UHGV virus genome: UHGV-1372779
Strand: one strand, 5' to 3'
Length of the DNA: 64,000 bases
Source of the DNA: a virus
Shown: positions 2,910 through 62,129 of the stretch, piece after piece
Layout: every line of letters starts with the position of its first letter
Numbering within the stretch: the first letter of the stretch is position 1
Position numbers and translations under genes: made by a program
Notes under the pieces: model-generated
What the model was told of the DNA's origin: nothing
What the model saw: the letters and a program-made list of their open reading frames with translations, nothing else
Databases searched by the model: none

Positions 2910-2912
2910 ATA

Positions 2913-5900
2913 TTAACATTTTTCAATTAAATTTCCAGAATTTAATAATGATGATTTTATATTATTAATAGTTCTATGTAAAAAGGCTTTATTTAAATTA
3001 TCGGCATTAAATAAAGAATATTTAGGATTAGCTGATTGTGCTAATAAACTATTAAATTCCATCACTATTTTTTCTAAAGGCATATTGGATAATTCCTTAC
3101 TTAAAACTTCTGCACTCTTGTTTCCAACTTCTGCAATATTTAAATCTAATCCATTGGATAAGATATTTAAATAATCGTTAAAGAAATTATTAGATTGTAA
3201 CAAATTATTAATATTGAAGTTATCAGAACTAAATATTCCTTGTAAGGATTTAGCTACAGCATCAACAAATGCTTCTTCTTTAGCATCAGAAAGTACTCTA
3301 TTTTGCATTACTTTTCTATACCTTTCAGTAAATCCAGATAATTCAGAAGCTTTATCTATTAATAGATTATATCTTTCTGGAGTAGTTTGTTTCATTACTC
3401 CCATTATAATATGCATAAGCTCATGCAGAGGAGAAGATAGTGAAGCTTTATCGGTATTCACATATACTTTATTTCCTAGGATAAATGCGCTAGATTGTTT
3501 AAGTTTAGTTGCTATATAAGGTGTTATATCTGGATTTTTATTTGCAATCCAATCTTTTATAGTAGCATCATCTATTACATTTATTATATTATTATAAGTA
3601 TTATTTATGTTACTTATGATCCTGTTAAGAATTTTCTTTTGGTTAAATCTATCAATAGTTTGGATAAAATAAGAACTTTCCTTAGGAGTAAATTGTTTAT
3701 CAGATAGAATATTATTTATTCTATCAGTTTTTGACTTATTAACAGGATAATAAAGTTCTACTATTTTATATTTCCCAGATTTAAGATCATTAAAGTTTAT
3801 ATTCCATTTGTTAGAATAGGTCTTCCCATCTAATCCTAGTATTTCCGATTCCAATTTAATTCCTTTATCAGTTTTAGATAGTATTCTTAAATACTTAGTT
3901 GTCTTTTTTCTATTATTAGAATCATATTGAATTTTAACAACATCTTGTACATCCAAAATTTCTGGAATCTTAATAGGATCTATTTGAGTAACCTTATTTA
4001 CATAATTAAAACCAGTAGCATTTGGAAGTTGTATATTATATTGAGTTCCATTAGAATATATAGTTTTTCTTAATCCATATAACTTACCGTCCTTAGAATT
4101 TATTTTATTTTGTTTTATATACTCTTCAGTAAGATCAATATAATCTCCAGATTTAATAAGTTTACTTATAGAGTCTGATATAATTACAGCTCTTCCTTTT
4201 TCCACTCCTTTCTCTTTAGAATCCCTAAATTTTTCTCTAAATTCTAAAGAACTATCCTTAGGAGCTATATATTTAACTTCAGTAACCTGAGTCCAATTGG
4301 TTGATTTATTAAACATATTAGATTTAGATAGAGCATCATCGTAAGATAAGGCATAAGTAGAGTGATTCATATCATATAATCTGCTTACTCTTTTACTATT
4401 ATATTCTCTAATATCAGAATGTCCACTTATTCCTAATTCATATATAGGGTTAGCTGCAAATCCCACATATATAATCTGATCTAAAGAAATATTTTTTCTA
4501 AACATATCTGTAGATCCATCTGGCCTATAGTATCCCGGAACCTCAATGATATTATTTAATATGTCTGCTCTAGAAACAATTCCTACATACTGCCTTCCAT
4601 TCTCTTCATATTTAATAATATCCCCTCTTTGTAACTTTGCTGCCTCTTCTGCAATATTAGATTCATCAGTATTTATTATATCATACAAGTCATTGAATGA
4701 TGTGGCAGTATTAGAATCTCCATTAAATACCCACTTTCCATCTATTAGCTCAAAAGCATTATTAATTTGAGATTTTTGAGTATTTAAGTGTTCTACTAAT
4801 TCAACATCTTCTGTATTGTTATAATATAAAGCAACTAAACTAGGAATAGGTCTATTAATTCCCTGATCAAATAAAACATTAGGCTCTATAGTTTTTAAAT
4901 CGACCATAGAAACTCTAGAAGTGGCAACTCCTTCTTCAGCTCTATTTTTATTTAAGAAGTATATATGATCTCCATCTATACCAATTACCATATGCTTACT
5001 AATTATAGGTCTTCCAGAATTAGTTGTTCCAAACCATTGAACTGCTACTGAATCTCCTATTTTTAATTGTTTGACTTTAGATCTTCTAAAATCAACAACT
5101 GATCTAGTATCAGCAGCCCCCACAAAATCTCCATTTAATTGTCTAGGAGATTCAGAATCCTCTTTTAGTCCAGGCAATGAGAACCATACACTTTGATATA
5201 AAGACCTATTTTTAGTAGATTCTAAATATTTGTTATAATCACTAGTAAACTCATTATGAATTCTAACTAATTCAGGGTGATTTTGTTTATTAAATATAGC
5301 TTCTTGTACATCATTAAATTTGTACAATTTACTAAAATATTTACCTTCTGCACTTTTTAATGCTACTTCTACAACAGTTCCAAAGGTTCTTAAAACCGGA
5401 GCAAAATATTCGAATCTTTCCCATTTATCACCTTTCTTAATTGGAGTAGATACTTTTACAATATCTCCTCTTCTAAGTTCTTGGTTAATTAAATTATTAC
5501 TTCCCTCTTTAGTTTTTAATCTAAATCCTCCCTTACCAGTGTTATAATATGTAAACTCTTTTCCAGTTCTAGTTGCAATTCCTAATTCTCTTAGTAAAGG
5601 TTGATTATCATAATCTCCAGAATTTAAACCTTCATCAAACTGATCTTTTACAGATTTTATTATTTCTATATCTATAGCTTCTCTGTCTAATTTACCATAG
5701 AATTTTCTAAATACTGGGTCTAAATTTTTCTCTGATAATAAATTTACTAGGTCTGTATAAGATATAGTAACTGGACTAACTCCATTACTTCCAAATTGTT
5801 TTAATACTGTTATAAGAGTTTCTCCTTTATCGTTTTTCCATATAGATCTAATAGGAAGATATTGTTTACTTGAAAAATATTTATCATCAAATTTTCCAAA

Positions 5901-7100
5901 TAAAACTTCTCCTTTAGATTTAGATATATTAGGAATTAATATTAAATCTCCTGGAGATAAACTATACAATTGTAAAGGAGACTCAAGTTTTACAGGCTCT
6001 GAATAATTAAGATCATATTTATATTTAGAGACCTTTTCATTAAGTTCAGAAGATGTTTCAATATAGTTCTTCCAAATAAAATCAGATACCTTTTTATAAT
6101 CTGATGAAATTTCTTTAGGAATAATTTGGTCTATATATTCTGAATCATATTTTCCTACAAAAGGAGGAACTTCAAATCTATTATCTACACTACTCCAATA
6201 AACTTCTTTAGGATCAAATTCAGTTGTTTTATCACCTCCATAAACGTATACAGGCTCTTTGCCATCCCATACTTTTTCTGCGCTAACATTGTCTAAATTA
6301 ATTCTATCAGCAATTATTCCAATATTAGAATCAATGTTAAATAATCTAGTAGTAAACTCTCTTCCTGCTCCTTCATTTAAATCAAAATTGAGAGCTTCTC
6401 TATACTTAGGATCTGCCAAAATATAAGAAACAAATTCTGTAAGATTCAAATATCCTTTATCCCCTGTTACTTTATTAACAAAGTCCTTGATAACAGGATT
6501 TGATTCTTTATTTTTTCTAGCAGTCTCAAAAACATTATAAGCTATTTCACTTATTCTTGAGAAATTTTCATTACTTTTAGGGATATTATTAAAATATAAA
6601 TGCAACATTTCATGATATAAATCTCTTAGAGTGTCTTCATTAAATCCTTCTTTAGTATTTAAAATTATGAAGTTATTTTTTAATAAAGTTCCTCTAATTC
6701 CTGTAGTGCCGTCAATATTTAAATTTATATTTTCTCCCTCAAGTAATAATATTTGAACTTGATTATTAGGTACTCCTAGATTTTCTAATTTGTTTCTTAG
6801 ATTATTGAAATCTTCTTTTAATTCATCATTTTGAATATAATCTACTTGTTCAGAAATAGTTTGTAAATCAAAATTTCCCAATAAAGGTTCTCCATTAGAG
6901 TATTCAATACTAATACTCATAGGATTTAATTGAGATAATCTAGATTTAATATCTAATAAATCCTCCGTAGATAATCCAGAAAAAGCTTCTAGTATCATAC
7001 TAGGATTTAAATTAGTGTCTTCTGTAAAGTTGGTTTGGACAGGAATCTCATATTCCTGTCCACCTACTTTATACTTAATAAATATTTTACAATTACTCAC
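2913..7100 (-). CDS. Giant virion or ejected-type protein of 1395 aa carrying two zincin HExxH motifs (HEMLH and HELMH).
   Basis: Long uninterrupted ORF. 'LYHEMLHLYF' and 'PLHELMHIIMG' are read directly from the translation. The gene is tightly packed against its neighbours. Confidence 0.7.
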   Translation of the reverse strand: MSNCKIFIKYKVGGQEYEIPVQTNFTEDTNLNPSMILEAFSGLSTEDLLDIKSRLSQLNPMSISIEYSNGEPLLGNFDLQTISEQVDYIQNDELKEDFNNLRNKLENLGVPNNQVQILLLEGENINLNIDGTTGIRGTLLKNNFIILNTKEGFNEDTLRDLYHEMLHLYFNNIPKSNENFSRISEIAYNVFETARKNKESNPVIKDFVNKVTGDKGYLNLTEFVSYILADPKYREALNFDLNEGAGREFTTRLFNIDSNIGIIADRINLDNVSAEKVWDGKEPVYVYGGDKTTEFDPKEVYWSSVDNRFEVPPFVGKYDSEYIDQIIPKEISSDYKKVSDFIWKNYIETSSELNEKVSKYKYDLNYSEPVKLESPLQLYSLSPGDLILIPNISKSKGEVLFGKFDDKYFSSKQYLPIRSIWKNDKGETLITVLKQFGSNGVSPVTISYTDLVNLLSEKNLDPVFRKFYGKLDREAIDIEIIKSVKDQFDEGLNSGDYDNQPLLRELGIATRTGKEFTYYNTGKGGFRLKTKEGSNNLINQELRRGDIVKVSTPIKKGDKWERFEYFAPVLRTFGTVVEVALKSAEGKYFSKLYKFNDVQEAIFNKQNHPELVRIHNEFTSDYNKYLESTKNRSLYQSVWFSLPGLKEDSESPRQLNGDFVGAADTRSVVDFRRSKVKQLKIGDSVAVQWFGTTNSGRPIISKHMVIGIDGDHIYFLNKNRAEEGVATSRVSMVDLKTIEPNVLFDQGINRPIPSLVALYYNNTEDVELVEHLNTQKSQINNAFELIDGKWVFNGDSNTATSFNDLYDIINTDESNIAEEAAKLQRGDIIKYEENGRQYVGIVSRADILNNIIEVPGYYRPDGSTDMFRKNISLDQIIYVGFAANPIYELGISGHSDIREYNSKRVSRLYDMNHSTYALSYDDALSKSNMFNKSTNWTQVTEVKYIAPKDSSLEFREKFRDSKEKGVEKGRAVIISDSISKLIKSGDYIDLTEEYIKQNKINSKDGKLYGLRKTIYSNGTQYNIQLPNATGFNYVNKVTQIDPIKIPEILDVQDVVKIQYDSNNRKKTTKYLRILSKTDKGIKLESEILGLDGKTYSNKWNINFNDLKSGKYKIVELYYPVNKSKTDRINNILSDKQFTPKESSYFIQTIDRFNQKKILNRIISNINNTYNNIINVIDDATIKDWIANKNPDITPYIATKLKQSSAFILGNKVYVNTDKASLSSPLHELMHIIMGVMKQTTPERYNLLIDKASELSGFTERYRKVMQNRVLSDAKEEAFVDAVAKSLQGIFSSDNFNINNLLQSNNFFNDYLNILSNGLDLNIAEVGNKSAEVLSKELSNMPLEKIVMEFNSLLAQSANPKYSLFNADNLNKAFLHRTINNIKSSLLNSGNLIEKC

Positions 7101-10100
7101 AGCGATATATTAATTTAATCTTATTTGTTCTTAATAAATTCATTACATTATTTACTAGATCTGTAACAGTTTTATTTCTGTTTACCGATTCAGCAAAGTT
7201 AGTATTTAAATTAGAATTAAACAAATAATAATTAGGATTCTTGTCTAAGACAATATCAGTGTACTTCTTTACTGGATACCCACCTTCGTTCATTTCAACC
7301 GTGACTTCTTGGATCTTATATGTAGATGTGTTTTTATCATATTTTTTCACATATTTATTTCCCATAGCCATTTCCTCAAAAGAACCTTTCACTGGAGCTA
7401 GTCTCATTTTTACATCATCCATATTTACATCATTGAGAGTAATCTTATCTCCTTGAAGATCATATTTGATATTTGGAATTGATGTATTATAATCTACTTC
7501 TCCTATATATTGGAAGAATCTACTTGCTAAACTATTTCTATTATATACTGATCCTTGTAGGATTTTTAATAAACTACCTTGTCCTTTTCTTCCTTTATTA
7601 ACTATTAAGTCATAAATAAGGAACAAATTAGATAATTTAATCCCATCAAATGTAATATTCTCAATAGCTCCAAATGCTGTAATTTGTTTATCAAATTCTA
7701 TATTATCTACAGTATTTAACATATTTACAGCAGATCTATAATGAGTATAAGGAGATCCATCCAGTTTGGATTTTTTATCAGTTAGAATAAGTTTATTCAA
7801 AAATTCATTTCTAGATAATACTGGAGTATTCACTCTTAATCCATTAGGAGAAATAGTATATCCATTTTTTAACATAGGAATTACTTTATTTTCCATATAA
7901 TATTTAAAAGAAGCCAATCCATCATCATCAGATAAGTTATATATGGTATCAGTAACAGCTTCAGTTAAAACTCCATTTATAAAATGAGAATCACCAGCTT
8001 TAACTTTAATTCCTATATTCTCATGATTTAAGAATTTCTTAATAATTAACTCATCTATATAATCTCTAATAGTACTAAACTGATTATCAGTTAATTTACC
8101 TATAGTACCATTGGACTTTTTCATTACTTCCGTTTCCAGTTGTCCTGTTATATCCATTAGTAAATTATATTTTATAGATGCCAATTTAAGATTATCTTCA
8201 TTTACTAAATAAGCTTTTAAGAAAGCATTGTAGTGAGGAAGTTTATCTATTAGATCAAATACATTAATTGCCCTCTTATAATTATTATAAAATTCAATTA
8301 CTGCATTTTTATATTCTGGGAGATTGAAAAATTTATTTAAGTCAAAATTAAAGTTGACTAAATTAGGATCTCCATTATTTGCATATTCTATAAGATTCTT
8401 AGTAACATTATATCTCTTTATAGCATCAGGATGATGATTTTCACTCTTTGTATCAAATCCAGCATATAATGTTGTAGCATCAGATAATGGATCAGATAAT
8501 AAATCATTAAATACTTTAGAGAAAGAATATCTATCAAATAATTTAGTTTTAGCACCTCCGTTTATACCTAATATTCTTCCTAATGAAGCTATTTCCTTAG
8601 CACTCTTAAATGCAGTAACAAATGATGAATAACTAGCATTGTCTTTATTTAACTTATCTCTAAGAGTTTTTAGATCTATAAGTTTACCCACATACCTCAA
8701 CAATCCCTTAGTAAAGTTATCAGATTCTTTATATAGGTAACTTTCACTTACCATTTCTCTAAATTCTTGAGCTATTTCATATTCATCTTGATTAGAATAT
8801 TCTTCAACAAATGTTCTGTTACTTTCCTCTAAGTCTTTTTTAATATTTAATAGCTCCTCTACAGGGATAGAATTTAAAATCTTACTAGGATTTTTTTCTA
8901 CTTTACCATCATTTCTTCTGATTTCTGAAACTTTTCCATCTGTTTGCAGTTTGCTTATATAATTTCTTAATGTTACTTTCCATTTATCATCTAAGAAATT
9001 ATTATAAGATAATCCATTATCAAGTTTTTTTAATATTGAATCAATACTCTCAGATTCATCATACATTCTATTTACATTAACAGCATTTTTTATGTCAGAT
9101 ACAGCATCACTTGTCATAAGATTTGCAATATCAGAGAATTCCAAACCATTAATGATTAGATATATATATGTTCCCATTAAATCTGGGTTGGCATTAATTT
9201 TATCAAGAATTAACTCTTTAGCATTATCTGTTGCGGCAGAAATGACGGCTGATATAACTAGAGATTTATCAGTTTGTATATACTTACTAGATACTGCATC
9301 TATATCATCAGCAGTTAAATCCCTTCCCTGCATTAGCTCAGCTCTATTTTCTTCTATAGCTTCATCTAATACTCTTCTTACATTAGGAGCATTATCAAGG
9401 TTTATATTAGCTAATGTATTTGCAAATACTCTAACTAATTTATTAACATCTTTGCCTTGATTATCTTTCATGCTCCTGTATATATTAAATATATTATTGA
9501 AATATATACTACTTGCTTTTAAATCTTCAACAGTAAGATTAGGCAATTTAGATAATCTTTGAGCTTCTTGATTAAAATATTGAGTTGCAGCTAAGAATAC
9601 TTTTTGTCCTACTGCACTAATACCAATACCTTCTTTTCCTGCCATATTAGCATAGAATAGATTATATTTAGTAGTAGGAGTAAATGTTGTCACTCTTTTA
9701 ATTTTCTCTCCCTCCTTAGACTTTTCTGCTGCTCTTTGAGGATCAGTCATAGCAATAGGAGAATAAGCTGCAATATGATTTTTCAGATTATTAGTAATCT
9801 GATATATAGTATTAAAGATAAAGTTCTTAGACCCTTGTAATAGTTCAGAATCTGAATTAGGTTGAGTATTATGGGATGATATATTTGACGAAATACGATC
9901 TATCCAATCTTCCTTCCCAGTTCCTTCATCATAATATAATTTAACATTATCTATTCCAGAATCATATATTCTATTTAATATCTTAACAGTAGCTTCAAAA
10001 GGAGTTCTTGAAGTTAATAATTCATTAGTTATATCAATAGAATCTACTCCCCTTTCCTTAGTAAATCCATAATTATTGGTTTCTGGATTAAAATTAGGAT

Positions 10101-10233
10101 AAGGAAGTTGTTTACTCAACTCAAAGTTGTTTATTCCCTCTTTAGATATATCATATCTAAATATTCTACTCCAAGGGGCATATACTCCAGAATCATTAAT
10201 TATAGGAGAAGTAATATATGCTTTGTCTATATC
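7093..10233 (-). CDS. Proposed exon 2 of a split giant gene. The frame is open upstream of the TTG 'start' the track annotated at 10119, back to a stop codon at 10237-10239. There is no ATG before about codon 113.
   Basis: The codon at 10117-10119 is TTG and the ORF caller printed it as M. The in-frame extension reads '..TDIDKAYITSPIINDSGVYAPWSRIFRYDISKEGINNFELSKQLPYP..'. It immediately follows the intron's proposed 3' splice site. Confidence 0.5.
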   Translation of the reverse strand, partial: DIDKAYITSPIINDSGVYAPWSRIFRYDISKEGINNFELSKQLPYPNFNPETNNYGFTKERGVDSIDITNELLTSRTPFEATVKILNRIYDSGIDNVKLYYDEGTGKEDWIDRISSNISSHNTQPNSDSELLQGSKNFIFNTIYQITNNLKNHIAAYSPIAMTDPQRAAEKSKEGEKIKRVTTFTPTTKYNLFYANMAGKEGIGISAVGQKVFLAATQYFNQEAQRLSKLPNLTVEDLKASSIYFNNIFNIYRSMKDNQGKDVNKLVRVFANTLANINLDNAPNVRRVLDEAIEENRAELMQGRDLTADDIDAVSSKYIQTDKSLVISAVISAATDNAKELILDKINANPDLMGTYIYLIINGLEFSDIANLMTSDAVSDIKNAVNVNRMYDESESIDSILKKLDNGLSYNNFLDDKWKVTLRNYISKLQTDGKVSEIRRNDGKVEKNPSKILNSIPVEELLNIKKDLEESNRTFVEEYSNQDEYEIAQEFREMVSESYLYKESDNFTKGLLRYVGKLIDLKTLRDKLNKDNASYSSFVTAFKSAKEIASLGRILGINGGAKTKLFDRYSFSKVFNDLLSDPLSDATTLYAGFDTKSENHHPDAIKRYNVTKNLIEYANNGDPNLVNFNFDLNKFFNLPEYKNAVIEFYNNYKRAINVFDLIDKLPHYNAFLKAYLVNEDNLKLASIKYNLLMDITGQLETEVMKKSNGTIGKLTDNQFSTIRDYIDELIIKKFLNHENIGIKVKAGDSHFINGVLTEAVTDTIYNLSDDDGLASFKYYMENKVIPMLKNGYTISPNGLRVNTPVLSRNEFLNKLILTDKKSKLDGSPYTHYRSAVNMLNTVDNIEFDKQITAFGAIENITFDGIKLSNLFLIYDLIVNKGRKGQGSLLKILQGSVYNRNSLASRFFQYIGEVDYNTSIPNIKYDLQGDKITLNDVNMDDVKMRLAPVKGSFEEMAMGNKYVKKYDKNTSTYKIQEVTVEMNEGGYPVKKYTDIVLDKNPNYYLFNSNLNTNFAESVNRNKTVTDLVNNVMNLLRTNKIKLIYRCE

Positions 10234-11314
10234 CGTTTAACCTTTATACTTTCACATAAAGACTGACTATATCATCACTGTTAATCTTCATTAACAGTGT
10301 CTTGCGCTTCGAGAACAGCTTTTTGCTGTGCAATAAACTCTTCTTTAGTAAAGTTATCTCTTATTTTATATAATAAAGATGGAACTTGTTCGATATATGG
10401 TTTTACAATTTCTATAAACTTTTTACAATCTTCTTCTGTGCTAGAGGCAATTGAAAAAGTGCCCTTTCCTTCTTTAAAAGGTCTAAATTTTATATTCCAG
10501 ACTTCTAAAAAGTATTGGATAATTATATTAATTGTAGGTTCATCAACACAAGTAGCTATTTTTATAGTATGTTGAATTGAACTTCTTTGTTTAGATGTAT
10601 TTACATTTATACACCCATCATCCATATACCAAATTGCAATCCCTAAAGGATTTAACCAATTTAGCAATCTTCTAGTAATAGTTTTCTTTGGAATATAAAT
10701 AGTTCTCCTTAATGCTTTAATAGTTGGATTTAAGGACATTTGCGAATATAAAACGTTCTTTCCTATATTGTAGCCGCATTTAGAAATATATTCCTTAATT
10801 CCATTATTTTTAATATTAAATTTGTTAAGAAGATCTACTTTCCATTGTAAAAACTCTCTCTGTGCTTCTGAATGAGAAAGTTTAAAAACGTAATTACTAG
10901 AAATTGTTCCATCTCCTAATAAAAGTCCTATTAATAGACTTTTTTGTTCTTTACTAAGTTTTTTAGTTATTTTTCGTGCCATATTACCTAATATTTTAAA
11001 TTAAACATTAGATAAAAGTCCCTACTCCCATAAAGGGATAGTCGATGAACTTTCATCCTTATAAATATAAAGATATAAGAAAATTTGTCAATTGACTAGT
11101 CTTATATCAAAATATTTATCTAGGATGCTTAGCTGCGGATTGTCCAATTTTAACCTTTTTTACTATACTGATAATAGTTAATTATCACCATTAAGTGTAT
11201 TTCTACCTTAATTTAGTAGGTTAAACTCTAAGGAGTTCCCCGCCAATTCACAAGATTTATTATAGTGACTACAATATTTAATTTGTCACCTAGCTAAACT
11301 TAAAAACTAGGTCA
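10234..11314 (-). mobile_element. Group I self-splicing intron of about 1081 nt carrying a LAGLIDADG homing-endonuclease ORF in the P8 region.
   Basis: Elements read on the minus strand:
- P-like 'aattggcgggg' at 11237-11249.
- Q-like 'acaatccgcagc' at 11132-11143.
- R 'gttcatcgactatcc' at 11035-11050.
- S 'gatatagtcagtc' at 10261-10273, with P7 formed by gacta/tagtc.
- P9 hairpin at 10242-10260.
- Internal guide sequence 'gtagtcact' at 11266-11274, pairing with the exon-1 end 'agtgactaT' at 11315-11323 (9 bp, closed by U:G at the splice site).
- P10 between 'atatt' and exon-2 'gatat'.
- The intron begins with the TGA that ends the upstream ORF. Its terminal G at 10234 precedes the first sense codon of the downstream open frame. 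Confidence 0.7.
10281..10982 (-). CDS. LAGLIDADG homing endonuclease with two motifs, encoded inside the intron.
   Basis: 'LLIGLLLGDGTIS' and 'IAIWYMDDGCIN' are the two LAGLIDADG motifs. The ORF sits between the intron R and S core elements. Confidence 0.8.
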   Translation of the reverse strand: MARKITKKLSKEQKSLLIGLLLGDGTISSNYVFKLSHSEAQREFLQWKVDLLNKFNIKNNGIKEYISKCGYNIGKNVLYSQMSLNPTIKALRRTIYIPKKTITRRLLNWLNPLGIAIWYMDDGCINVNTSKQRSSIQHTIKIATCVDEPTINIIIQYFLEVWNIKFRPFKEGKGTFSIASSTEEDCKKFIEIVKPYIEQVPSLLYKIRDNFTKEEFIAQQKAVLEAQDTVNED

Positions 11315-14300
11315 ATAGTCACTTCCCTGTAACCAAATTTGGTAATGTGATACATAAGCCTCATTGCTTTCAGCATCAGAGAATCCTACAACTTTCATAG
11401 TCATAATTGATTGGAAAGCCTGAGCTGGAATACGATTAGCTGTAACATTTAAAGCCTCCTTAAATGAAGTAAACATCTTTTCAGCTTTTCTATTTATATT
11501 ATTTCTAATAGATTGGTTATATCTACCTTTAACCTCTCTAACTAATTCTTCATTTTCTAAATTACTTAAATCTCCAAAGGAATTTAATAACTTAGTATCA
11601 TAAGTTCCAAAAAAGGTTAATAATGTATTTATATTATCAGGATTAAAATTATAGAATATTCCATTATAGTTTTGGTCTTTAGATACATCTAATAATCTAG
11701 TCATATTATTAGGATCAACTACTATAACTTCTTGCGGAATCTGTGATTTGGGATCTTTGTAAAACTTCAATCCATCTATTTTATATAATTTTCTTCCTGC
11801 TTCATCCATTCTCCAGATTTCTCCATCAATATTATCTTTAATAATATCTATCTCCTCTAATTCAGAAATATAATCATTCTTTGAAGAAGAATCATTAATT
11901 ATAACTTGAGCATTTGCTCCAGCTGGATTTAATAATAATGCATCTATATTGTTGTTATTCTTAATTTCCTCCTTAGCTGCATTATAGTTAGCTATAAGCT
12001 TTTCTCTAAAAAATCTGCCATTGCTATTTATTACATCTGGAATAGAATCCCCAGGTCTAAGGAAGAATTTAGTTTGATATATCTTAGATAGAACTACCTC
12101 TGCAGGATTTATTATTATATTCTCTATTTTAACCATTAATTCTTCTGGAGTATATTGAGACAACATCGTTCTATCAATTCTTTCTCCAGTACTAATATTA
12201 TATAAATTATCTTGATTTGCAGATATAATATCATTAATCCTAGGATCTAAAGAAGATAATTCATAAAATCCCTCATCCAATCTAGATAAAGACTTATTAA
12301 TTCTATTTTGCACCTCTAGTATTTGTTCATCAGAGCCTTTATTAGCTCTTAATTCAAAGATTGTTTTAACTAGTGGATTATCATAAATACTATATGTGTA
12401 ATCAATTCCTGGTATTCTGAATGTTACATTCATAGGAGCTAATTCCTTCCTAGAATCTTTTATTATAGTAAGAGGTTTATCAGAATTTTTATATTTCTGA
12501 TATAACTCATAGGTATTAATTTCTTCATCTTGACCTGATTCTTCATTAAACACCACATCTCCGAATTTTAGATCAGATGGATTTATTGTTGGATTCAGAT
12601 TCGGCGCAGAATCTTTAAAATTATCTACTGCACTTATTCTATCTAATCCTTCCCCAGTAGCTCTATATCCAGCCTTAGCAGCTATTAATTCTAAATCAAA
12701 TTCTGAATAAGTTCCATTTAAATTAATAGGGTTTCCATTAATATCAACAAATCCTTCTGTTCCATCAAAATGATAAAATTTCATAGAACCATAAGAAGGT
12801 TTCATTACAGCTCCCATACCAGAGAATGTTCTCTTAATACTATCAGAATTCATTTTGGATGTAAGCATTGTGATAAATTGATTATGAATACTTCCTGCAC
12901 TGAATGGAGTTTTAAAATTAAAATCAGCTGTATTAAATTCTGTATTTAAATTATTCTCAAATTCTTGAGCTATTTCATTTAAATATCCATTTAATAGTGC
13001 ATCAGAATCAGATCCAGTAGATAATGCTCTTAATAGAGATTTTGTCAGAGTTTTATATAATTTAGTCTTATTACCTAAAGATATCTCATTATATGCCTCA
13101 ACAGCTCTTGCATCATTCTGAGCTTCTAAATACTCTTTTAGTGTTAAATCAACAATACTTCCTAAAGCATTATAGGCTCTAGAAGCTAATTTTATTGTAT
13201 TACCATTAGCAGCCAATGTAGATATAATCTGAGTAGATTCAGTTACTTCTGAATTATCTGCATGGTGATCAGCATTCATTTGAATTCCAAAATATTGAGA
13301 ACCTATAGTGTAATAATTCAAATCTGAATCATCATATCTACTTGTGGCTGGATTAGTATTTCTAGCTCCAACTTTAAGTGCAGAACCATTGATTAAATAG
13401 TGAATATCACTATGCTTCATTGGTTGATAGATATAATTTTGATCTAATATTACCTTTAGATTTCCATTACTATCAAAGAAGTCTGATTTATTTTCAGATA
13501 ATTTATTTTCTTCTACATCATATATGTTAGATTGGAATGAAGCGTTTTCATTACCTATTACTTGTCTAATATTATTTAAGTCTTCCTTAGTTTTATAGAA
13601 TCCAGTAGAATTTATAAATTTGGCTACAGCTTTAACTGATGCTTCACTAGGTTCTAAAAATCTATTAACTGGATTTTCAGAGTTTAAAGAGAAACTTCTT
13701 TGTCCTCCTAATGCTTCCCATAATTTAAAATTGGTATCAATTAACACATTAGGTCTTTCTTTTATAAAACTGTTAGGAGCCTGAGTTCCATCTCTATTTA
13801 CATGAACCTCTTTTATAGTATATCTATTATTTCCCTCTGGAATTATGTCTAATATTTGACGATACTCACCTTCATCAGTATTAAAATAATAAATACTTTC
13901 CTTAAGAACCTGATCTAAAGATCTTAAATTTCCATCAAAATCTTGCATTAAATTAAGAACCGGAATAGGCCAAGCTCTGTCAGTCATTTTCTTTAATAGC
14001 TTAATTTTTTCTGGAGAATGTCTCATTACATTATTATCAATTGCAAATGAAGCACATTTAAATAATGAAGCAGAACCATGAATAGGATTTATGTCATATC
14101 CAAAGTTCTTTCTATTTTGTCCAGCTGAACTTGAGAACATTGAATTATTCTCTAATTCATTTTGCCAACCAGTACATTCCATAGAACCATCTAGGGGCTT
14201 AACTACATCTTCTTCTCCAGAAGGATTAAATACTGGTGCCTCAATATCTTTAATAACAGCACACCTAATTTCAGATCCAGTTCCTTCTAAAGATCCTTGA

Positions 14301-17300
14301 TAATAGTTATGAATAGTACCCTGCATCATAACCATACGTTTATATTGAGCAATCAATCTATTAGCATGGTCATTTATACAATAATTCTCTTCATTACCTT
14401 CAAATTTAACTTTCTTTAGTTTAGAAGGATGAGCATAAGGCTCCCCTGCAGTAATCTGCATAAATTGATTAGATAAATACCCATCTAAAAAGAAGAATTT
14501 TTCAAATATAGGATTTAATTTACCATCTCTAATAATATCCATGTACCCATCTTTTCCTATCCAAGAATATGCTGTGTAATCATCTTTTAAGAAACTAAAC
14601 ACATCAGTATCTATCTTAATGTGCTTATCTAAGATGTCTTGTTTGAAGTTATCCATAGACCTCTTTATAAATCTTTCATAAGCCTTATCAGAAGTTGTAG
14701 ATACTTTATATATCTCACTCATATATTCTATGAAAGGGTTCATTCTCATTTTTCCATCTACTTTAGAGAAATGAGTTTCTTCTACCCATTCAAAAGTGGG
14801 ATCTTCATGAGCAATTTGTGAAGCCACAGCTTGTACTTCTTTGAATCTATTAGTTAGCATATCATTAATAGTATTCATGTTTTTTCTAACAGCTCTAGCT
14901 TTTCCTTCTTCTGATGTACTATTAAATATATTAGTAGCTATATTAACCCCTAATCTTTCTCCTATTCTTGAATAAGTATTAAATAAGTTACTTAATACAT
15001 TAGTATAATAGGTCTTTTGTCTTCTCCTATTCTCTTGCTCAATTTCAGGAGCGGTTACACTTGATAAACTTTTATCATTAATCTTTAAATCTTTAGATAT
15101 AGTAACTAATGACTGGTTTGCCTTGTCTGCATATACAGTAGGAAGAAAGTTTATATCATTTCCATCTATTAAATTCTTATAAAAGTCTAATATAACAGAT
15201 GAAGTAGTATACTCAGCTACATTAAATTTATTCTTTTGTATAACTCTTCCTGATTGAGTTACAAATTCAGTTTTTAATCTAACTCCTTTAATTAAGTCAG
15301 GAGAATTAAATAAAATATTTTCAGAAAAAATATTTTTAAATTGAGGATTTCTTTTTAATTCTCTATTCTGATATTGTTTTACTACTTCTATAAAATCAGG
15401 AATAGTTTTCATAAGATTCATCAACCCCACTGAAGGAACATTATCCCCATCTGAATTTTTATATGTACTAGGATTAGTATCCCCATTTATTATACTTAGA
15501 GAAGATACTATAGATTTAAATATAGCACTTCTTCCGGTCCCTGAAGAATTTCTACTTATTAATAATCTAGGACTTATTGTAGGATTAATAAATTGTTTAT
15601 TAAATGCTTCTCCACTTAATCCAGAATATCTTCTATCACTTTTAACTTCTCTAACAAATTCTTCTGGTGTGAATTTCTTTTTATTATCTACTTCCTTCTT
15701 ATGAATATCCTCTAATACCCTTAACGTGTCTAAAGTGCTGTATAAAAATGATAATAAATCTGATTTAAGATTATTTTCATCTTTATATTCATTAGTCATT
15801 CTAGAATACAATTGTCCAGCTGTGTTCTTAAATGGGAATCCAGTAGTAAGCTGTAATAATTCTAGCAATCTATATCCATCCATTACATCTGGATCTACTT
15901 TTTCTCCATTTATAATTTTACTTACCTGATCTGGAGTAGGCATTATTAAACTTTCTCTTACAGATTTATTATAATCTGTTCTAGTAACAGGATCTAACTT
16001 TTCTGCCTTCATATTTGGAGATAAGTTAATAGATCTGTTATTTAGTTTAATAGTTATAGTTTGGTCATTATTATATGTTAATCCGAACCCATCGTTTTGG
16101 TCTTTAATTATATTTAATAGTTCATTAGTAACTAAGCTATTTAAATCATTAGCTGAATTTACTTCATAATTTTTTAATGTAGACTCATATGAAATATTTG
16201 AAAATGTATCAATTTCATATTGTTTTGTATCTGGATTAAATTTATATGAAATATATTCAGAAGGCCCTTGTTTATTTATATAAGCCATTATATCCATAAA
16301 ATAGTTAAAATCTAAATCAGTCTGATTTTTAGCTATTATGTTATATAATGATGTTGCTTTAGGACTTGGGTCTATAATACTTTTATATATAGAATATAAT
16401 GTATCTTTTACTGAATTATCAAAGCTATCATTATATTTAAATTGTTTAAATGCGGATTGAGTTCCGAAGAATCTATTAAATAATTTAAGATATGCCTTAG
16501 TAGGATTTAAATGGGCTTCATTTAATTCTGGATATTTATTCTTAACTGAAGAATTATTGAATTTAGCTATGGCTGTGTTAAAATCATTAACTGTTAAATA
16601 ACTAAATCCATCCCAATTCCCATTAAGATCTAATTTCTTAATATTTTGAATTATAGCTTTAGTAACTGCTGCAGTTTCTCTTTCTATACTTGTTTCAAAA
16701 TTAGTTGTGGAGAAACTTTGTCTAATTATATTCTTTTTAAATGGAAGATATTTAGGTTCATACAGATTAGAAGTTACAATTCCAAACTTCTTAGGATCTA
16801 TATAAACTAACCCAGTAGTAATAATGTTAATTAAATTATCAAAATTTTCTAAAGCTATAGTAGAATTATAAGCATCAATAAACAATTTATCATTAGGAGA
16901 TAATTTAGTAAATGCTCTGTCATTTATTGAATTTAATCTAGAAGTAGGATTATTAGTTTCATAGTATTCATTTATTCTTCTAATAACTTCATTAAATCCT
17001 TCTAAATTAAAATCTCCATTTACATTATATAGATTTACTTTAGGCAGTTCCAAAAAGTTAGTGATATTATCTAATAAGTCTTGTTTGTATTGACCTATAT
17101 TTAAATTCATATCCTTAACAGTTTTGGCTATCTTTCCAGAATCAAAATCTAAAAAGGATGTTTTAAATATGTCCTTTCCAAAACTATTTTGGAATCTGCT
17201 TAATAATGCAGAATTAGTTTGAAATTTATTGCTTAAATCTAGAGTAGATTTAATATTACTAGAATAATCTACATCTTTTCTACTAGATTCTATTTCATTT

Positions 17301-17719
17301 ACTAATGTCTCAGTAGCTATTTTTTGAGCTTGATCAAAATCTTCCACACTTTCATCTGGAGAAACTAGTACTTGATAAGTTTCATTAGTTAATGCCGGGT
17401 TATTAGTTGCATCTGATTTGATAGATGCTTTAGGATCAGCAGAAGGAACTGTAGAAATATTTAATATATTTTTATCTAAAGAATCTTTAATCTTAGAATA
17501 ATCTCTCCCATTTGTTAGTGTTTTTTGGTTAAGATATTCTTTTATAGCTTCTACTAAATTTTGATCAGAGGGAATTCTGAAATCTTTTTGCAAAGATTCT
17601 TTAATATCTCTGAACTGATCAGTAGAAATACTATCACCCTGGAATATTACATCCCAAGGTGATAGATTTATTAAAAAGGTTTGAGATCTGGATGACTCAT
17701 TAAAAAAATCACATGCCAT
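11312..17719 (-). CDS. Proposed exon 1 of the split giant gene, about 2135 aa. The first ATG gives MACDFFNE. The codon at 17728 that the track annotated as the start is TTG.
   Basis: The ATG at 17717-17719 lies 2 nt after the upstream stop. The ORF ends in a TGA that is the first triplet of the group I intron. There is no in-frame stop across 6.4 kb. Confidence 0.65.
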   Translation of the reverse strand: MACDFFNESSRSQTFLINLSPWDVIFQGDSISTDQFRDIKESLQKDFRIPSDQNLVEAIKEYLNQKTLTNGRDYSKIKDSLDKNILNISTVPSADPKASIKSDATNNPALTNETYQVLVSPDESVEDFDQAQKIATETLVNEIESSRKDVDYSSNIKSTLDLSNKFQTNSALLSRFQNSFGKDIFKTSFLDFDSGKIAKTVKDMNLNIGQYKQDLLDNITNFLELPKVNLYNVNGDFNLEGFNEVIRRINEYYETNNPTSRLNSINDRAFTKLSPNDKLFIDAYNSTIALENFDNLINIITTGLVYIDPKKFGIVTSNLYEPKYLPFKKNIIRQSFSTTNFETSIERETAAVTKAIIQNIKKLDLNGNWDGFSYLTVNDFNTAIAKFNNSSVKNKYPELNEAHLNPTKAYLKLFNRFFGTQSAFKQFKYNDSFDNSVKDTLYSIYKSIIDPSPKATSLYNIIAKNQTDLDFNYFMDIMAYINKQGPSEYISYKFNPDTKQYEIDTFSNISYESTLKNYEVNSANDLNSLVTNELLNIIKDQNDGFGLTYNNDQTITIKLNNRSINLSPNMKAEKLDPVTRTDYNKSVRESLIMPTPDQVSKIINGEKVDPDVMDGYRLLELLQLTTGFPFKNTAGQLYSRMTNEYKDENNLKSDLLSFLYSTLDTLRVLEDIHKKEVDNKKKFTPEEFVREVKSDRRYSGLSGEAFNKQFINPTISPRLLISRNSSGTGRSAIFKSIVSSLSIINGDTNPSTYKNSDGDNVPSVGLMNLMKTIPDFIEVVKQYQNRELKRNPQFKNIFSENILFNSPDLIKGVRLKTEFVTQSGRVIQKNKFNVAEYTTSSVILDFYKNLIDGNDINFLPTVYADKANQSLVTISKDLKINDKSLSSVTAPEIEQENRRRQKTYYTNVLSNLFNTYSRIGERLGVNIATNIFNSTSEEGKARAVRKNMNTINDMLTNRFKEVQAVASQIAHEDPTFEWVEETHFSKVDGKMRMNPFIEYMSEIYKVSTTSDKAYERFIKRSMDNFKQDILDKHIKIDTDVFSFLKDDYTAYSWIGKDGYMDIIRDGKLNPIFEKFFFLDGYLSNQFMQITAGEPYAHPSKLKKVKFEGNEENYCINDHANRLIAQYKRMVMMQGTIHNYYQGSLEGTGSEIRCAVIKDIEAPVFNPSGEEDVVKPLDGSMECTGWQNELENNSMFSSSAGQNRKNFGYDINPIHGSASLFKCASFAIDNNVMRHSPEKIKLLKKMTDRAWPIPVLNLMQDFDGNLRSLDQVLKESIYYFNTDEGEYRQILDIIPEGNNRYTIKEVHVNRDGTQAPNSFIKERPNVLIDTNFKLWEALGGQRSFSLNSENPVNRFLEPSEASVKAVAKFINSTGFYKTKEDLNNIRQVIGNENASFQSNIYDVEENKLSENKSDFFDSNGNLKVILDQNYIYQPMKHSDIHYLINGSALKVGARNTNPATSRYDDSDLNYYTIGSQYFGIQMNADHHADNSEVTESTQIISTLAANGNTIKLASRAYNALGSIVDLTLKEYLEAQNDARAVEAYNEISLGNKTKLYKTLTKSLLRALSTGSDSDALLNGYLNEIAQEFENNLNTEFNTADFNFKTPFSAGSIHNQFITMLTSKMNSDSIKRTFSGMGAVMKPSYGSMKFYHFDGTEGFVDINGNPINLNGTYSEFDLELIAAKAGYRATGEGLDRISAVDNFKDSAPNLNPTINPSDLKFGDVVFNEESGQDEEINTYELYQKYKNSDKPLTIIKDSRKELAPMNVTFRIPGIDYTYSIYDNPLVKTIFELRANKGSDEQILEVQNRINKSLSRLDEGFYELSSLDPRINDIISANQDNLYNISTGERIDRTMLSQYTPEELMVKIENIIINPAEVVLSKIYQTKFFLRPGDSIPDVINSNGRFFREKLIANYNAAKEEIKNNNNIDALLLNPAGANAQVIINDSSSKNDYISELEEIDIIKDNIDGEIWRMDEAGRKLYKIDGLKFYKDPKSQIPQEVIVVDPNNMTRLLDVSKDQNYNGIFYNFNPDNINTLLTFFGTYDTKLLNSFGDLSNLENEELVREVKGRYNQSIRNNINRKAEKMFTSFKEALNVTANRIPAQAFQSIMTMKVVGFSDAESNEAYVSHYQIWLQGSDY

Positions 17720-17721
17720 AT

Positions 17722-20700
17722 TTAACAAATATTATATTTACTTCTTATTTTATTTATATCTATAAGTGCAGATTTAACATTTTCATTACTTAGTATATTT
17801 AAAATATTAGAATCAATTCTTCCGTTGATTACTAAATCATTAATTAGTTTTAAATCACCAATATTTGATTCAATTAATTTAAAATTATCTGCTAATGTAG
17901 CTAAATCTATTGCACTTATTTCTGAAGCACTAAACATACTTCCGAAATTATTTTGTAAATATAATCTATTTTCATTACTTTTCCTAATATTATCTTCTAT
18001 ATTTTCAATTGGTTTAGGTTGAGTGAAGATAGTAAATTCTCCACCAACATATTTAATATGACTTACAATACTATCAGAACCATGACTTATATTTAATCCA
18101 GGAATAATACTATTTAATTGAGGAATGTATTTGGAAACCAAATTATCCACAAATGTCTTAATATTCACTGGTCCATCTACATTAGCTTCTATAGTAGGCA
18201 ACATACTAGGTATAATCTTGTCAAATTCAGATTTTACTACTGGATTAGATATTCTATCTGAAACCCAAGTAAGATAATCAAGAGCTTGCTTTACGTTCTT
18301 AGATTGAATTTGTGTTTTTTGTTCAGTTTCTGGCTTAATACTAGGCTCTGAATTGTTAATAGTTTGAGATTCTGGCTGAGAAACATCTTGAGGTTTTTCA
18401 ACTTTTTTATATCCAAATTCTTCAGGATTAGCTAAATCTCTAGAAGCAACAAATGCAAATTGTGGAGTTTGTAAATCTCTGTCTATATAATAAGATCCTT
18501 CAAGATTTACTGCTCTAATAAAATTCTTATCCCCAGTATGTCCCTGTTGATCCTTATCATACATCATTACTGGGAATGGGTAAATCCCTTCTTTAAATAT
18601 AGGATTATAATTAGGCATGTCTTTACCCTGAACTTTACCAGTTAATGCAGCCTCCATAAAATCAAATAAATTTTCAGAGGTTATGTCCTTATCTAAATTT
18701 AAGAAGAATGTTTCATTTTCTTTATTTTCAATAATATTTGAGGTATACTTGCCTTGCTCTTCTCTTATTTTATCATTTATTATTTCTCTAAAATATCTGA
18801 GAACATCATTACCATTAATTTTTTCTGCACTAGATTTATATTGATCTAATAGTTTAGAATCTAACTCTTGATGCATCCTTTCCATAATCCTCATGATGTG
18901 GAATTCTGTTGCATTTGGAGTTTTAATATTAGTAAGTTGCTGACTATTAGTACTAGCTAAGGCAGATAATCCAGAATATAATCTATCTGCGATTTTATAA
19001 AATTTATTTCCGGTTTGACCGTAAGCCTCTAACCAATTCTTATAATTTAATATAGATAATATTATATCAAATCCTGTATAATCCCCAAAATAAGACTTAT
19101 AGAATTTATTTCCTAATTTAGAAGCACTAGATTGTGAATAAGATTTTACATACTTATCATAGTTATTAAAGAACTCTCTAAAAGTTAAAGGATTAGGACT
19201 AAGAACAATCATTCTTATTTTATCCCTCATATCTGGATTGTTATCAAACTCTCCTGATGCTTGTCTAATGTAATAATCTCCATACTCACTTTCTGGAATT
19301 ACATTTCCATCTTCATCATAGATCTTTTCCGCATAGGTTGCAAAGACAATGGCTTTACCTTTTAGATTATATTTTTTGGTTTCATAAGTTAATTTTAATA
19401 ACTTATCTTGTAACTCTCTTCCTATTTTTGTTCTTTCAGTAAGATCCTCTGTAGAATTATATCTCTCTCTAGTTCTATTATAATCATTCTGAGCTTCTAT
19501 AATTCTATCACTGGCTTCTTGAATGTCAGAGTTTCTTTTAGTCTTATTACTATTATAATCTACAACAACATAAGGATTTGAGAAATATATTCCTTTAAAT
19601 TGTGTACCCCTATCTTCAAAATTATAATGTTTTCTTCCTTCTGGATCTTTCTTATAAATAACTAAATTGGTTATTTTTTCTAATTCAAAATCATCAGATA
19701 ATGGAATATATTCTGATGTATATAATTTAGAATAATCAGAAGGAACTCTATTCATAATTTCTGAATAGAATGGTTTATAAGAGGCAAACCATTTAGATTT
19801 TTCAAATTTAGCCTCATTTCCATTAGGAAGACTATATATAGATAATTCTATATTTTGTTGAGAAGTACTAGAATTTAAAATAGGTATAGTATAAACAACT
19901 CTTAACCTCTCTGATCTATTACTTCCATCTGAATGTATTTCCCCGTCGTAAAAATATTTAACTGCTTTAAGTTGGAATTTTCCATTTTTTAAATCTAATG
20001 ATCCAGTATTTCCGACTACATCTCTAAATGTATTATTAACATTAGATTCTATAAGATCTAATTCTTGATTTCTTCTTTCTTTAGATTTGAAACTATATAA
20101 TACACTCTTTATACTCTGAACCGTTCTATCGACCTTTTTAAAATTATCGGGGGATAATTTAGAATATGATCCATTAAAGAAGGCTGTATGATCAGAATCA
20201 TATAATCCAGAACTTGTTATATCAGATTTAATACTGTAAGATAAGATATTTCCATCTTTATCTTTTATTGGAAATTCTTTAATTCTATTATCATAAGAGT
20301 AAGCAATAAAACTATCTTCTGGATATTCTCTTACTTTGCTATCACTTCTATATAACTCTTCTGTAACTCTATTAGATTTTTCTTCGTCCTGATCAAATAC
20401 TTCATCTATTACTCTATCTAATGTTACATTTCCTGTTTTAGTATCACTTGTGGTAGTTTTAGATTTAGGTTCTTGGGGAGTAATAGTTTCAGGAGCTACA
20501 TAATTCTGTAATATAGATTCTAAAGATTTAAGTCTTAATTCAGAAAAAGATTTTGCAGATTCACTACTTAACACTGATTCTTGGGTATAATTTAATTTCT
20601 CTGAACCCTTTGTAAAGGTTTGTGAACTTAAATTATTATCTATTATAATAGTCCCATCTTTAGATCTAGTAATAGCTGTATATAAGTCTCTAATATTCTT

Positions 20701-23700
20701 TTCTATAAGAGCATCTTGCTTAAAATCTAAATGAAGATCTACTATAAAATATGGAGCTTCAAGACCCTGTACTTCGTTAAGTTTAAATATCTTAACTTTC
20801 TTATCATGAGTTCTATTGTATTCAGTGATAAGTTTATAGGTACTTGAATTGGTATCATCATATATATATCCTATATCTCCATTAGTGTTGGAATATAAAT
20901 TCTCAATCTCTTCAATAGAAGTAGAAGCAGCTAATTTTTCTCCGTTTAATATTCCATTTTCCTGATAATATTTTAGGGAAGGGATATTACCTAGAATTTG
21001 TCTGTGTAGTGGAACTAAATCATCAAAGGATAAATTATTATCTTTTGCATAAATTTGTTCATTAGCTGTTCTTAATGCATCTAAATTATCCTTCTTATGT
21101 ATATTAGAGACTCTTAATGAAGTTGATAATGTAGGGGTAGAAACTTTCAAAGCATCTACATCTATCCCCATATATAACCCATCTGATACTCTATGATACC
21201 CTGATTGAACTAAATCTCCGAATGTTAATAAAATCTTATTATTGATTCTTGCCCATTCAGAGAGTACTTCTAATTCAAATTTGGAGAAGTGAGTAACTTC
21301 ATCAATATAGATTATCCTTTGATCTTTAAAAGCATCATTATTGAAATTAGATTTACCTAAATATTTGTTCTTTAGTTTATAATTTTGATAATTATGCTCT
21401 TTAATATTTGTCCAATCTATATATTTACTATTATGTACTCCATTTTGGAAGTCATTGTTAGCTGAGGCTATTATTGAATAATCATTATATATATTGGTCA
21501 ATAATTCTTCTTTAGTAGAAGCAATATTACCTTGAGCATTAATTTCTCCATTAACAGTTGTTAGATCATCCTTATCACTAAAATTAGTTTCTAAAATTGC
21601 ATTAGTTAGATTTATAGCTTGTTGAGATTTAGGTCCAACTAATACAATTCTCTGATCACCTAGTAATTTATTAATTACCTTATTTGTAAGCCTTCCAACT
21701 CCATTGGTTTTCCCTACCCCAGGAGCACCATTATTGAATACTAAATTGTGATATGAGTCAGTATATTCTTTGTATACAGTTTTTAAGTGACCATCTCTAA
21801 TAGAGTTTAACTTATTTGAATCTACATATGTGATATTGTTCATAAAATCTGGATCTAATACCATTGCTACATTTATTCTAGTAGCATATTCTTGTGAAAA
21901 TATAGGTATTAAGAATTTTCCAGATTCTCTTTTAAATTCATCATCTATTATATCTTTAAGAGCTTTGCTATATTCAGAAGCCTTAATAGTAGATATAGTA
22001 TGATAGTATACAAATAACTCAGACGGGTCTAATTCCGATAAAGTTTCTGTTAGTGGGGAAGGATTATTATAATCACCTTTAACTAGCTTAGAATAATCAT
22101 ATCCTTGAAATAATCTTCCTATTAATTGTTGTTTAGTGAATTTATTAGAACTAGATAGAGAATTTACATTATCATATATTTTATCTTCTACCTTATTAAC
22201 TAAATCCTCTAGTTTAATAAAATCTTCATCAGATAAATCAGGTTTGAATAGTTCTTCTACATCATAATTATTTATAATATTGTCTACTTCCTCAAACATC
22301 TCTGGACATTTATTAGTAAAGTTCTTATCTAAGAAATTCTTTACTATAGCTTGTCTAGTTTTAATAGCTGTTAATTTATGTTCCCTTAATTTATTTCCTA
22401 CATTCTTTTCAGATAATTTTTTAAAGAAATTTAACTGATTCTGAACTCTAGTTAATTCATTAAGAACTTGAATAGCTATATTTTGATCAATTTCAGGAAG
22501 AATATCTGTAGAAGCTCCATCAACTTGATTTTGTTGTCTAAATCTATTTAAAGTAGTATTATATCCATATCCAGAACCATCTATATTAGTGGATCTAATA
22601 GTAGATGTTACTAATGATTTTAGTAAATCAATAGTTTGTATAGCATTAGTTAATTGCTCATTTCTGACTTTACCTTGAATAACATATTCTGAAAGTCTGG
22701 CTGCAGATTTAAGTTGAGCATTCTCATTCTCTAGAAGATCAAAAATATTAATTTGATTATCATCTCCTAATATTTCTACTTCTATTTTCTTTAATAAGTC
22801 TAGAATCGGATTATTTTTTAATTTATTCTCATTTATAAAAGAGTCAGATAATGTTACTAGTTCCTGAAGAGATGATTTAGAGTCGTAAACATTAGCATTA
22901 TTTAAAGCATTAACTAGAACCATTTTTCCCTGATCTGAGATACTGGAGGGAATAATTATATTAGATACTTCAAACCAATTTTTAGCTCCTTTTAACTCAT
23001 TTGTTACTCTAATTAGCTCATTTAAATCATTAAATCCATTATCTTCTAAAGCTTGTTCAGCAAATGATAGCATATCAGGAGTAAGACCTAGACTTTCAAA
23101 TCCCTCTGGAGTTAATTTATCAATAGTAATAACTTCCTCCACACTAGGATCTATCATTAAGGCTATAGATTTATTTAGTACAGAATCATTCAGACTAAAT
23201 GCGCTATCAGGTTTTATATAATCTAGAAGTTGTTTATATAAATCCTTAGTAAGTTCTACATTATCTGCCTTAGCATCCGCCAATAATTGTTTAGCACTAG
23301 CCATTTTCATAAGAGGAGATAGTTCATAATTATATTTGTTAACTACTTCTCTAATTCCTACTCTTATATTATTTAAATATTGAGAAAAATCCTCATTATA
23401 TCTAGCGGTTACTATATTGGTAAATAATTGTCTTAACTCTGGAGAAGATATTTTGTTAGAATAATCCAATAATCTATCTCTTATTAAATCTGAAGATTCT
23501 ATATTAGAATCTGGATTATTAGTATTTGTTTGAGCTTCTTCACGAATTTCTCTTAATACTTTCCCAAATTCTGTTTCTTGCCCATTTTGATCTATAGGAG
23601 CTAAATTGCTTAAGAAATCATCTATAAAAGTTTGATTAAGTTCAGAAAATTTAGTTTTAGACCCAACTAAGGATGCAGAATTTATTCCTATAGGAATTAA

Positions 23701-62083: not shown

Positions 62084-62129
62084 AAGGTTGTGAACAGCCT
62101 ATATTATATTGTTTTTAACTCATAATATT

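Follow-up and report, generated by a model that had tools for sequence, protein, structure and literature searches.

A LAGLIDADG-bearing group I intron in the catalytic-motif codons of a predicted crAss-like virion RNA polymerase gene

Two giant open reading frames (ORFs) annotated as hypothetical in the virus genome UHGV-1372779, together with the 1.2-kb gap between them, are best described as one gene for a 3,181-aa virion RNA polymerase with an exact splice junction. The window analysed here is the whole stretch of 64,000 nucleotides, and all genes in the part that concerns us lie on the minus strand. The best overall explanation, which we hold with high confidence, is a homing-type group I intron in a crAss-like virion RNA polymerase gene. 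The observations behind it are the sequence elements of the intron, the covariation of its helices, the collinearity of homologues over the junction, the identity of the polymerase and an intron much better conserved than the exons; from the sequence we infer that the RNA is spliced in vivo, that the endonuclease is active and that the intron homes. With the gene comes a candidate endonuclease whose predicted target is the DxDxD-coding sequence, and a widespread intron family with ORF-containing and ORF-less members that is missed by domain-based annotation.

The intron has 1,081 nt (10234..11314, minus strand). It lies between exon 1 (11315..17719, minus strand; 2,135 codons from the ATG at 17719, ending ...WLQGSDY) and exon 2 (7093..10233, minus strand; 1,046 codons plus stop, starting DIDKAYITSP...). 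The ATG at 17719 was chosen as the start because the N-terminus MAC fits the conserved MxC of the homologues. The upstream ORF (11312-17728, 2,138 codons) ends in ...WLQGSDY and is closed by the TGA at 11314-11312. Downstream, the reading frame extends without a stop back to 10236, its earliest in-frame start-type codon is a TTG at 10119, and the G at 10234 stands immediately before GAT ATA GAC (DID...). Since the intron starts with UGA (5' end UGAC...), an unspliced message would stop at once. The 3' end reads ...UUAAACG with 10234 as its terminal G, a base found in 24 of the 24 introns of this site. A TGA at the intron start is shared by the window (11312-11314) and many relatives; in the MT835470 lineage (L002, 9122-9157) the intron starts with CGG and the frame stays open for 11 more codons before it meets a stop. 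The predicted spliced RNA has the junction ...GGAAGTGACTAT|GATATAGACAAA..., which can also be written as ...CAGGGAAGTGACTAT joined to GATATAGACAAAGCA...; conceptual splicing gives ...YVSHYQIWLQGSDY-DIDKAYITSP... with the predicted junction peptide VVGFSDAESNEAYVSHYQIWLQGSDYDIDK, and the product has 3,181 aa with ATG 17719 as start. The evidence supports a LAGLIDADG-bearing group I intron that would split one gene of about 3,180 codons exactly at 11315|11314 and 10234|10233. The initial annotation had set the boundaries at 11314 and 10234, and these proved exact; its description of a downstream ORF without ATG, whose M in the gene track is a TTG and whose frame is open to 10236 behind a G at 10234, holds in every detail, and the single product of about 3180 aa that it expected agrees with the computed length and with the collinear homologues.

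The ribozyme core P3-P9 was found in canonical order, with the P3/P7 pseudoknot and with the P, Q, R and S elements, each motif lying where the initial annotation had quoted it; partial Rfam alignments place the elements identically. All elements are on the minus strand. The internal guide region (11264..11277) supplies the P1 guide and the P10 strand. In P1, the guide GTAGTCACT (also written GUAGUCACU; 11264-11272) pairs over 9 bp with the end of exon 1, AGTGACTAT (also written AGUGACUAU; 11315-11323), and the helix ends in a U·G pair. A 9-bp pairing of the guide with the upstream ORF end, U:G last, had been proposed before, and it does put the 5' splice site just before the TGA. P10 (5 bp) joins AUAUU at 11273-11277 to the first five nucleotides of exon 2, GAUAU at 10229-10233. 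The 5' core block (11134..11255) contains the 5' strand of P3 (11249-11255; P3' is CGCAAGA at 10300-10306), P4 (11239-11245 with 11134-11139), P5 (11232-11234 with 11143-11145), P5a (11219-11225 with 11149-11155) and the hairpins P5b (11190-11212) and P5c (11169-11187). It is followed by P6, an extended hairpin with inner helices (11054..11127; CAUCCU.../...AGGAUG), by the 5' strand of P7 (GACUAU, 11038-11043, with the 3' strand AUAGUC, 10265-10270) and by the P7.1 hairpin (11027-11037, CCC-UUUAU-GGG), whose loop is a GNRA in most relatives. P7.2 pairs GGGA at 11019-11022 with UCUC at 10311-10314 and covaries to GGAA/UUCC, GGAC/GUCC and GGGC/GCCC in relatives. The 3' core block (10242..10314) comprises the 3' strand of P7.2, P3', the P8 hairpin (10276-10299), the 3' strand of P7 and P9 with its GAAA loop (10242-10261). 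P2 is absent. In the classification of Michel and Westhof, subgroup IA is marked by two additional helices, P7.1 and P7.2, that follow the P7 5' strand and precede P3'; as both are present, we place the intron in this subgroup.

Covariation was scored in 13 distinct introns of the same site, whose cores were aligned over 403 columns (alignment A6) after removal of the variable P1 and P7.2 loops; the structure has 88 pairs in P1, P10, P3, P4, P5, P5a-c, P6, P7, P7.1, P7.2, P8 and P9. Paired cells amount to 98.0% over the 13 introns against 37-44% when the partners are slid, a difference that is inflated because the relatives were consulted when the helices were drawn up on the window sequence, and in which cell counts are not independent events, some of the 13 sequences being close relatives. 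This derivation has less influence on compensatory changes: 37 of the 88 pairs changed on both sides, compared with 3-6 in slid controls, the covariation score was 0.337 against ~0.06, and none of 500 shuffles reached the observed values. Such changes occur in P5a (7/7 pairs), P5b (4/6), P5c (5/7), P3 (4/7), P7.2 (2/4), P8 (2/5) and P9 (7/8), and also in P6 and P7.1. P4, P5, P7 and P10 are invariant among the 13 introns and so carry no covariation evidence, and the splice-site U·G pair is likewise invariant (13/13). The P1 guide covaries with the coding exon from C:G to U:A, guide GTAGTC facing exon GAC and guide GTAATC facing exon GAT. For the Ser codon AGT the partner is the guide ...ACT, and genomes with TCT or TCC at this codon have a 7-bp P1; over the 24 introns, exon AG with guide (IGS) CU is set against an unpaired exon UC. 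In the window itself, each of the 88 modelled pairs is a standard one. Without the modelled structure, the double changes would be difficult to account for.

The initial annotation had named an Rfam search for Intron_gpI as a check, and at the gathering score (50 bits for RF00028, Intron_gpI) no match to this model was found over the window. In E-value mode RF00028 gave two partial matches, both on the minus strand as expected: one of 27 bits (E 1.6e-4) at 10243-10360 and one of 17.4 bits at 11025-11254. The intron is missed at the gathering score because its 701-nt ORF loop splits the model into these two parts. The ORF-less orthologue L019 reaches 63 bits, above the gathering score, and its Rfam alignment covers P3-P9, and a stretch inserted behind P7 folds into P7.1 (CCC-GAAA-GGG) and P7.2 (GGAA-GAAA-UUCC); the smallest ORF-less orthologue, L010, scores 18.5 bits. 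For comparison, the DNA-polymerase spacer of cr271_1 has 51.7 bits, and the intron of a Staphylococcus Twort-like phage falls below the threshold with 37 bits. Five related loci searched at the gathering score yielded only a tRNA. The sub-threshold scores of related loci indicate that RF00028 is insensitive for this AT-rich class of phage introns, and the miss is not a refutation. Matches of low Rfam score to snoRNA and miRNA families in the region were treated as chance. By blastn, the 5' half of the intron (about 11121-11275) is 72-76% identical to spacers at known intron positions that split other phage genes, namely the DNA polymerase of Crassvirales cr271_1 and cr127_1 (~73% identity), and the lysin of Twortvirinae Staphylococcus phages and a gene of Vibrio phages JA-1 and VCO139 (72-74% identity).

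At the polymerase site, gene calls break at the same codon boundary in the metagenome proteins P0009-P0011 and in GenBank MT835470. A scan for the 19-nt intron core TTGGACAATCCGCAGCTAA found it in 76 IMG/VR contigs (L014-L089), and in about 23 of these the element lies between ...GSDY and DIDKAY.... The other contigs with the exact core, about 53, carry it away from the polymerase DxDxD site; evidently, the intron family occupies several other genes besides the polymerase. Altogether 24 introns were found at this one site, three of which are ORF-less (L010, L019 and L034) with sizes of 284, 363 and 378 nt. The smallest (L010, 1339-1622; 284 nt) retains little of the P5 and P6 extensions, and in place of P7.1/P7.2 and the ORF it has an AT-rich filler of ~60 nt, which may be a remnant of ORF loss. 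Between the window intron and its orthologues the nucleotide identity is 72-81%, compared with 51-59% in the flanking 600 nt and 25-32% of residues in the flanking 200 codons, and the sole megablast match of window positions 7000-30000 in the phage collection is the intron. Intron-less target sequences are available from L011-L013; such alleles read ...GGNTCNGAYTAT|GATATTGATAAR..., and the target in L013 is CAAGGATCAGATTAT|GATATTGATAAAGCT. This pattern of conservation, together with the ORF-containing and ORF-less forms at one site, fits an intron that would home into an invariant coding sequence.

The putative homing endonuclease gene (10281..10982, minus strand) encodes 233 aa and matches Pfam LAGLIDADG_2 (PF03161; E 4.5e-26, 92.2 bits, cut-off 25) and phrog_11023. 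The chain contains two LAGLIDADG motifs (LLLGDG... and WYMDDG...), the sequence AGGU lies 5 nt ahead of its ATG, and residues 12-217 align with 32-234 of I-SceI at E 5e-4, which is nearly full length. With its own start and stop codons and in the absence of a Hint domain, the endonuclease does not belong to an intein, and this candidate was rejected. The last 11 codons and the stop overlap the P7.2 3' strand, P3' and P8, and the stop codon TAA (10281-10283) is inside P8. As the ORF is closed by P7.2, with P3' and P8 downstream of the ORF body, the gene is placed in the loop of P7.2; the LAGLIDADG identity given in the initial annotation is borne out by Pfam, and only the location in P8 had to be corrected.

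Rather than only an endonuclease, the LAGLIDADG protein could be a maturase without which the intron does not splice. Some mitochondrial LAGLIDADG proteins are maturases, which speaks for such a role. A LAGLIDADG protein shown in the transcription gene block of crAss-like phages is labelled "intron-encoded endonuclease maturase" in a figure legend (Fig. 3 in Yutin et al. 2021, PMC7886860). Against it stand the ORF-less introns L010, L019 and L034, which reside in otherwise intact polymerase genes, so that splicing there cannot depend on a cis-encoded protein; moreover, peripheral helices and GNRA loops typical of self-splicing phage IA introns surround the core. We consider dependence on a maturase improbable and favour an autonomously splicing intron.

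An exhaustive phmmer search with the host protein returned 783 relatives, and 161 proteins were compared, the best 150 of the 783 plus 11 from an earlier search. The junction stretch LQGSDYDIDKAY, as expected from the in-frame fusion of ...WLQGSDY to DIDKAYITSP... proposed at the outset, is contiguous in 137 of the 161, most of which have 3,000-3,700 aa; 5 proteins end at the junction and 9 begin there. Among homologues of at least 2,700 aa, 114 of 116 span the junction in one HSP, which answers in the affirmative the earlier call for homology that is collinear across it. The homologue P0019 is collinear in one HSP from query position 736 to the C-terminus (736-3184). In alignment A1 the junction block is contiguous in eight homologues, and three others stop exactly at ...GSDY; the invariant columns at the junction are G, D, D, I and D. 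Related phages read TAG as a sense codon, probably for Gln, in the polymerase gene. This is seen in L001 (MT835492.1, 9000-9300), in L009 (about 2000-2050) and in L010 (about 1300-1340), with SHF*AWL*GADYDIDKAY as an example, and with the standard bacterial code no ORF of L001 reaches 150 aa.

Neither exon product had a match in Pfam or PHROGs, and no polymerase was hit among PDB sequences, either by the exon products searched singly or by two family profiles. The residues R-I-P-x-Q...Q-S...G-S-D-x-D-I-D are invariant in the family, as is an upstream KR...DG...K...K block, which is held by exon 1 in the first, beta-like barrel region. In an hhalign comparison of the family profile with phi14:2 gp66 (probability 96.9%, E 1.6e-10), GSDYDIDKAY was placed on GSDFDIDKMY. 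The catalytic motif of gp66 is 1361-DFDID-1365, each Asp of which was found essential by experiment, and the motif of the gp66 family is DxDxD with I or V at the fourth position (bioRxiv 10.1101/2020.03.07.982082). In this polymerase family the motif lies in a double-psi beta-barrel. The DYDID that splicing would restore is invariant in the family and aligns to DFDID of gp66; thus, the intron splits the Mg-binding loop as D-Y|D-I-D. Foldseek with the predicted structure ranked 6vr4_A first, weakly, the AlphaFold model being moderately confident (mean pLDDT 63.9). The gene order of a large virion protein, the polymerase and a protein of ~1,400 aa mirrors phi14:2 g067-g065. In the window the flanking ORFs, both on the minus strand, have 2,962 aa (17722-26610; weak SF1-helicase-like matches, below Pfam thresholds) and 1,395 aa (2913-7100; located where phi14:2 has its "RNA polymerase associated protein" g065). 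These findings support the assignment of the host protein to the crAss-like virion-packaged two-barrel RNA polymerases of the phi14:2 gp66 family. The initial annotation had suggested a probable virion-cargo protein, a vague label which hhalign and gene order sharpen to a gp66-family virion RNA polymerase.

Upstream of the polymerase gene, the window encodes a Crassvirus muzzle protein of 1,556 aa (37514-42184, minus strand; PF25731 with E 1.9e-24, and its C-terminal domain), a match that places the window in the extended crAss-like assemblage. From this neighbourhood of muzzle and large virion proteins we predict that virions carry the polymerase and that it serves early transcription. The nearest records, MT835470 and MT835492, come from unclassified gut phages, and Flavobacterium phages follow at a distance; a candidate capsid ORF had no phage match by tblastn. 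At the far end of the window there is a diversity-generating retroelement (DGR; 60795-63836, minus strand) with a reverse transcriptase (60795-61808; Pfam RVT_1, E 1.3e-19; phrog_1423), a template repeat (61975-62083) and a variable repeat (62142-62250) at the 3' end of a tail-protein gene (62130-63836), all on the minus strand; 20 of the 20 differences between the repeats fall on template adenines. The reverse transcriptase belongs to this DGR and the core described here is of group I, so a group II intron was rejected.

Could the two ORFs be what gene callers list, that is two separate genes and a free-standing endonuclease gene, whose products are translated apart and assemble as a split polymerase without splicing? 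Database entries are often called in this way, as the proteins that end or begin at the junction illustrate, and split large subunits occur in other phage and cyanobacterial RNA polymerases. However, the break would then separate the first Asp of the invariant DxDxD loop from the second, and exon 2 could start only at the TTG, 38 codons in, with the loss of two catalytic Asp residues and of the DIDKAY...WS block. Furthermore, the spacer has the fold of a group I ribozyme, its guide is complementary to both exon ends and covaries with exon bases, and ORF-less spacers of 284-378 nt with the same core occupy the same codon boundary. We regard two genes as very improbable compared with one gene interrupted by an intron. 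Equally far-fetched is a decayed, non-splicing remnant in a polymerase pseudogene or in a contig of a defective phage: the sub-threshold Rfam score of the window would suit it, but the 88 pairs are complete, the terminal G, the U·G pair, P10 and the P9 GAAA loop are intact, the endonuclease ORF has its full length, both exons are long open frames with all invariant family residues, and the characterised relative needs its polymerase for early transcription (bioRxiv 10.1101/2020.03.07.982082).

For the group I intron in the polymerase gene, we propose the following course of events. The ribozyme would fold in the late pre-mRNA, and the last nine bases of exon 1 would form P1 with the internal guide, with U·G as its last pair. 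Bound at P7, an external guanosine would attack after U11315; the terminal G (10234) would next occupy the G site, with exon 2 aligned by P10. Ligation of the exons would restore ...LQGSDY-DIDKAY... with the catalytic DYDID and make one 3,181-aa polymerase translatable. If splicing did not occur, translation would stop at the UGA of the intron and the first Asp would be cut off from the other two. By analogy with other phage introns, the monomeric I-SceI-like endonuclease would, during co-infection, cleave the conserved DxDxD-coding sequence of intron-less alleles, which would then receive a copy of the intron by repair.

Delta- and Zeta-group crAss-like phages are described as having core genes densely populated by group I introns and inteins (Yutin et al. 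2021, Nat Commun 12:1044, PMC7886860). In the Zeta group, RNA polymerase ORFs were found to be broken within the DxDxD motif of RNAPB', for which "additional, yet unknown expression mechanisms" were suggested (PMC7886860); a 2023 review of the Crassvirales restates this account. Those introns were detected via protein domains, and neither a ribozyme structure nor a splice junction was given for the polymerase break, whereas the DY|DID break is resolved here to the nucleotide as an ordinary group I intron, with and without ORF. ORF-less forms of 284-378 nt have no protein domain, so they are invisible to domain-based intron searches and would look like stops or frameshifts. Since the 3' end of the endonuclease ORF runs through P3' into P8, its translation and the folding of the ribozyme may exclude each other, which could time expression of the homing enzyme against splicing. 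Leaning slightly to the sceptical side, we consider it possible that a large share of the reported Zeta-group DxDxD breaks represents this one mobile IA intron family and, as a smaller point, that endonuclease translation and ribozyme folding are exclusive. The intron offers an ordinary and testable account of crAss-like polymerase genes broken in the catalytic motif, which the literature has flagged as maybe needing unknown mechanisms.

Among the systems that resemble the parts of this locus, phi14:2 gp66 (PDB 6VR4) is likewise a two-barrel polymerase with the catalytic DFDID in place of DYDID and the same gene neighbourhood, but it is an uninterrupted protein of 2,180 aa, whereas the window protein has 3,181 aa, is interrupted and shares ~22% identity in the aligned core. 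I-SceI, from the intron of the yeast mitochondrial LSU rRNA, is similar to the window endonuclease in size (235 versus 233 aa), in its two LAGLIDADG motifs and in being encoded by a group I intron; the relationship is remote, and the predicted target of the window enzyme is a protein-coding site. Conserved sites of essential phage genes are classic places for group I introns that encode homing endonucleases. The phage IA introns of T4 (td, nrdB and nrdD/sunY) and of Staphylococcus Twort-like phages share with the window intron P7.1 and P7.2 between P7 and P3', the U·G pair, the terminal G, a strongly conserved insertion site in an essential gene and an optional endonuclease ORF looped from a peripheral helix. 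The endonucleases of T4 introns are of the GIY-YIG or H-N-H type. In contrast to these introns, that of the window resides in a crAss-like virion RNA polymerase gene, is devoid of P2, and carries in the loop of P7.2 an ORF for a LAGLIDADG enzyme whose 3' end extends through P3' into P8.
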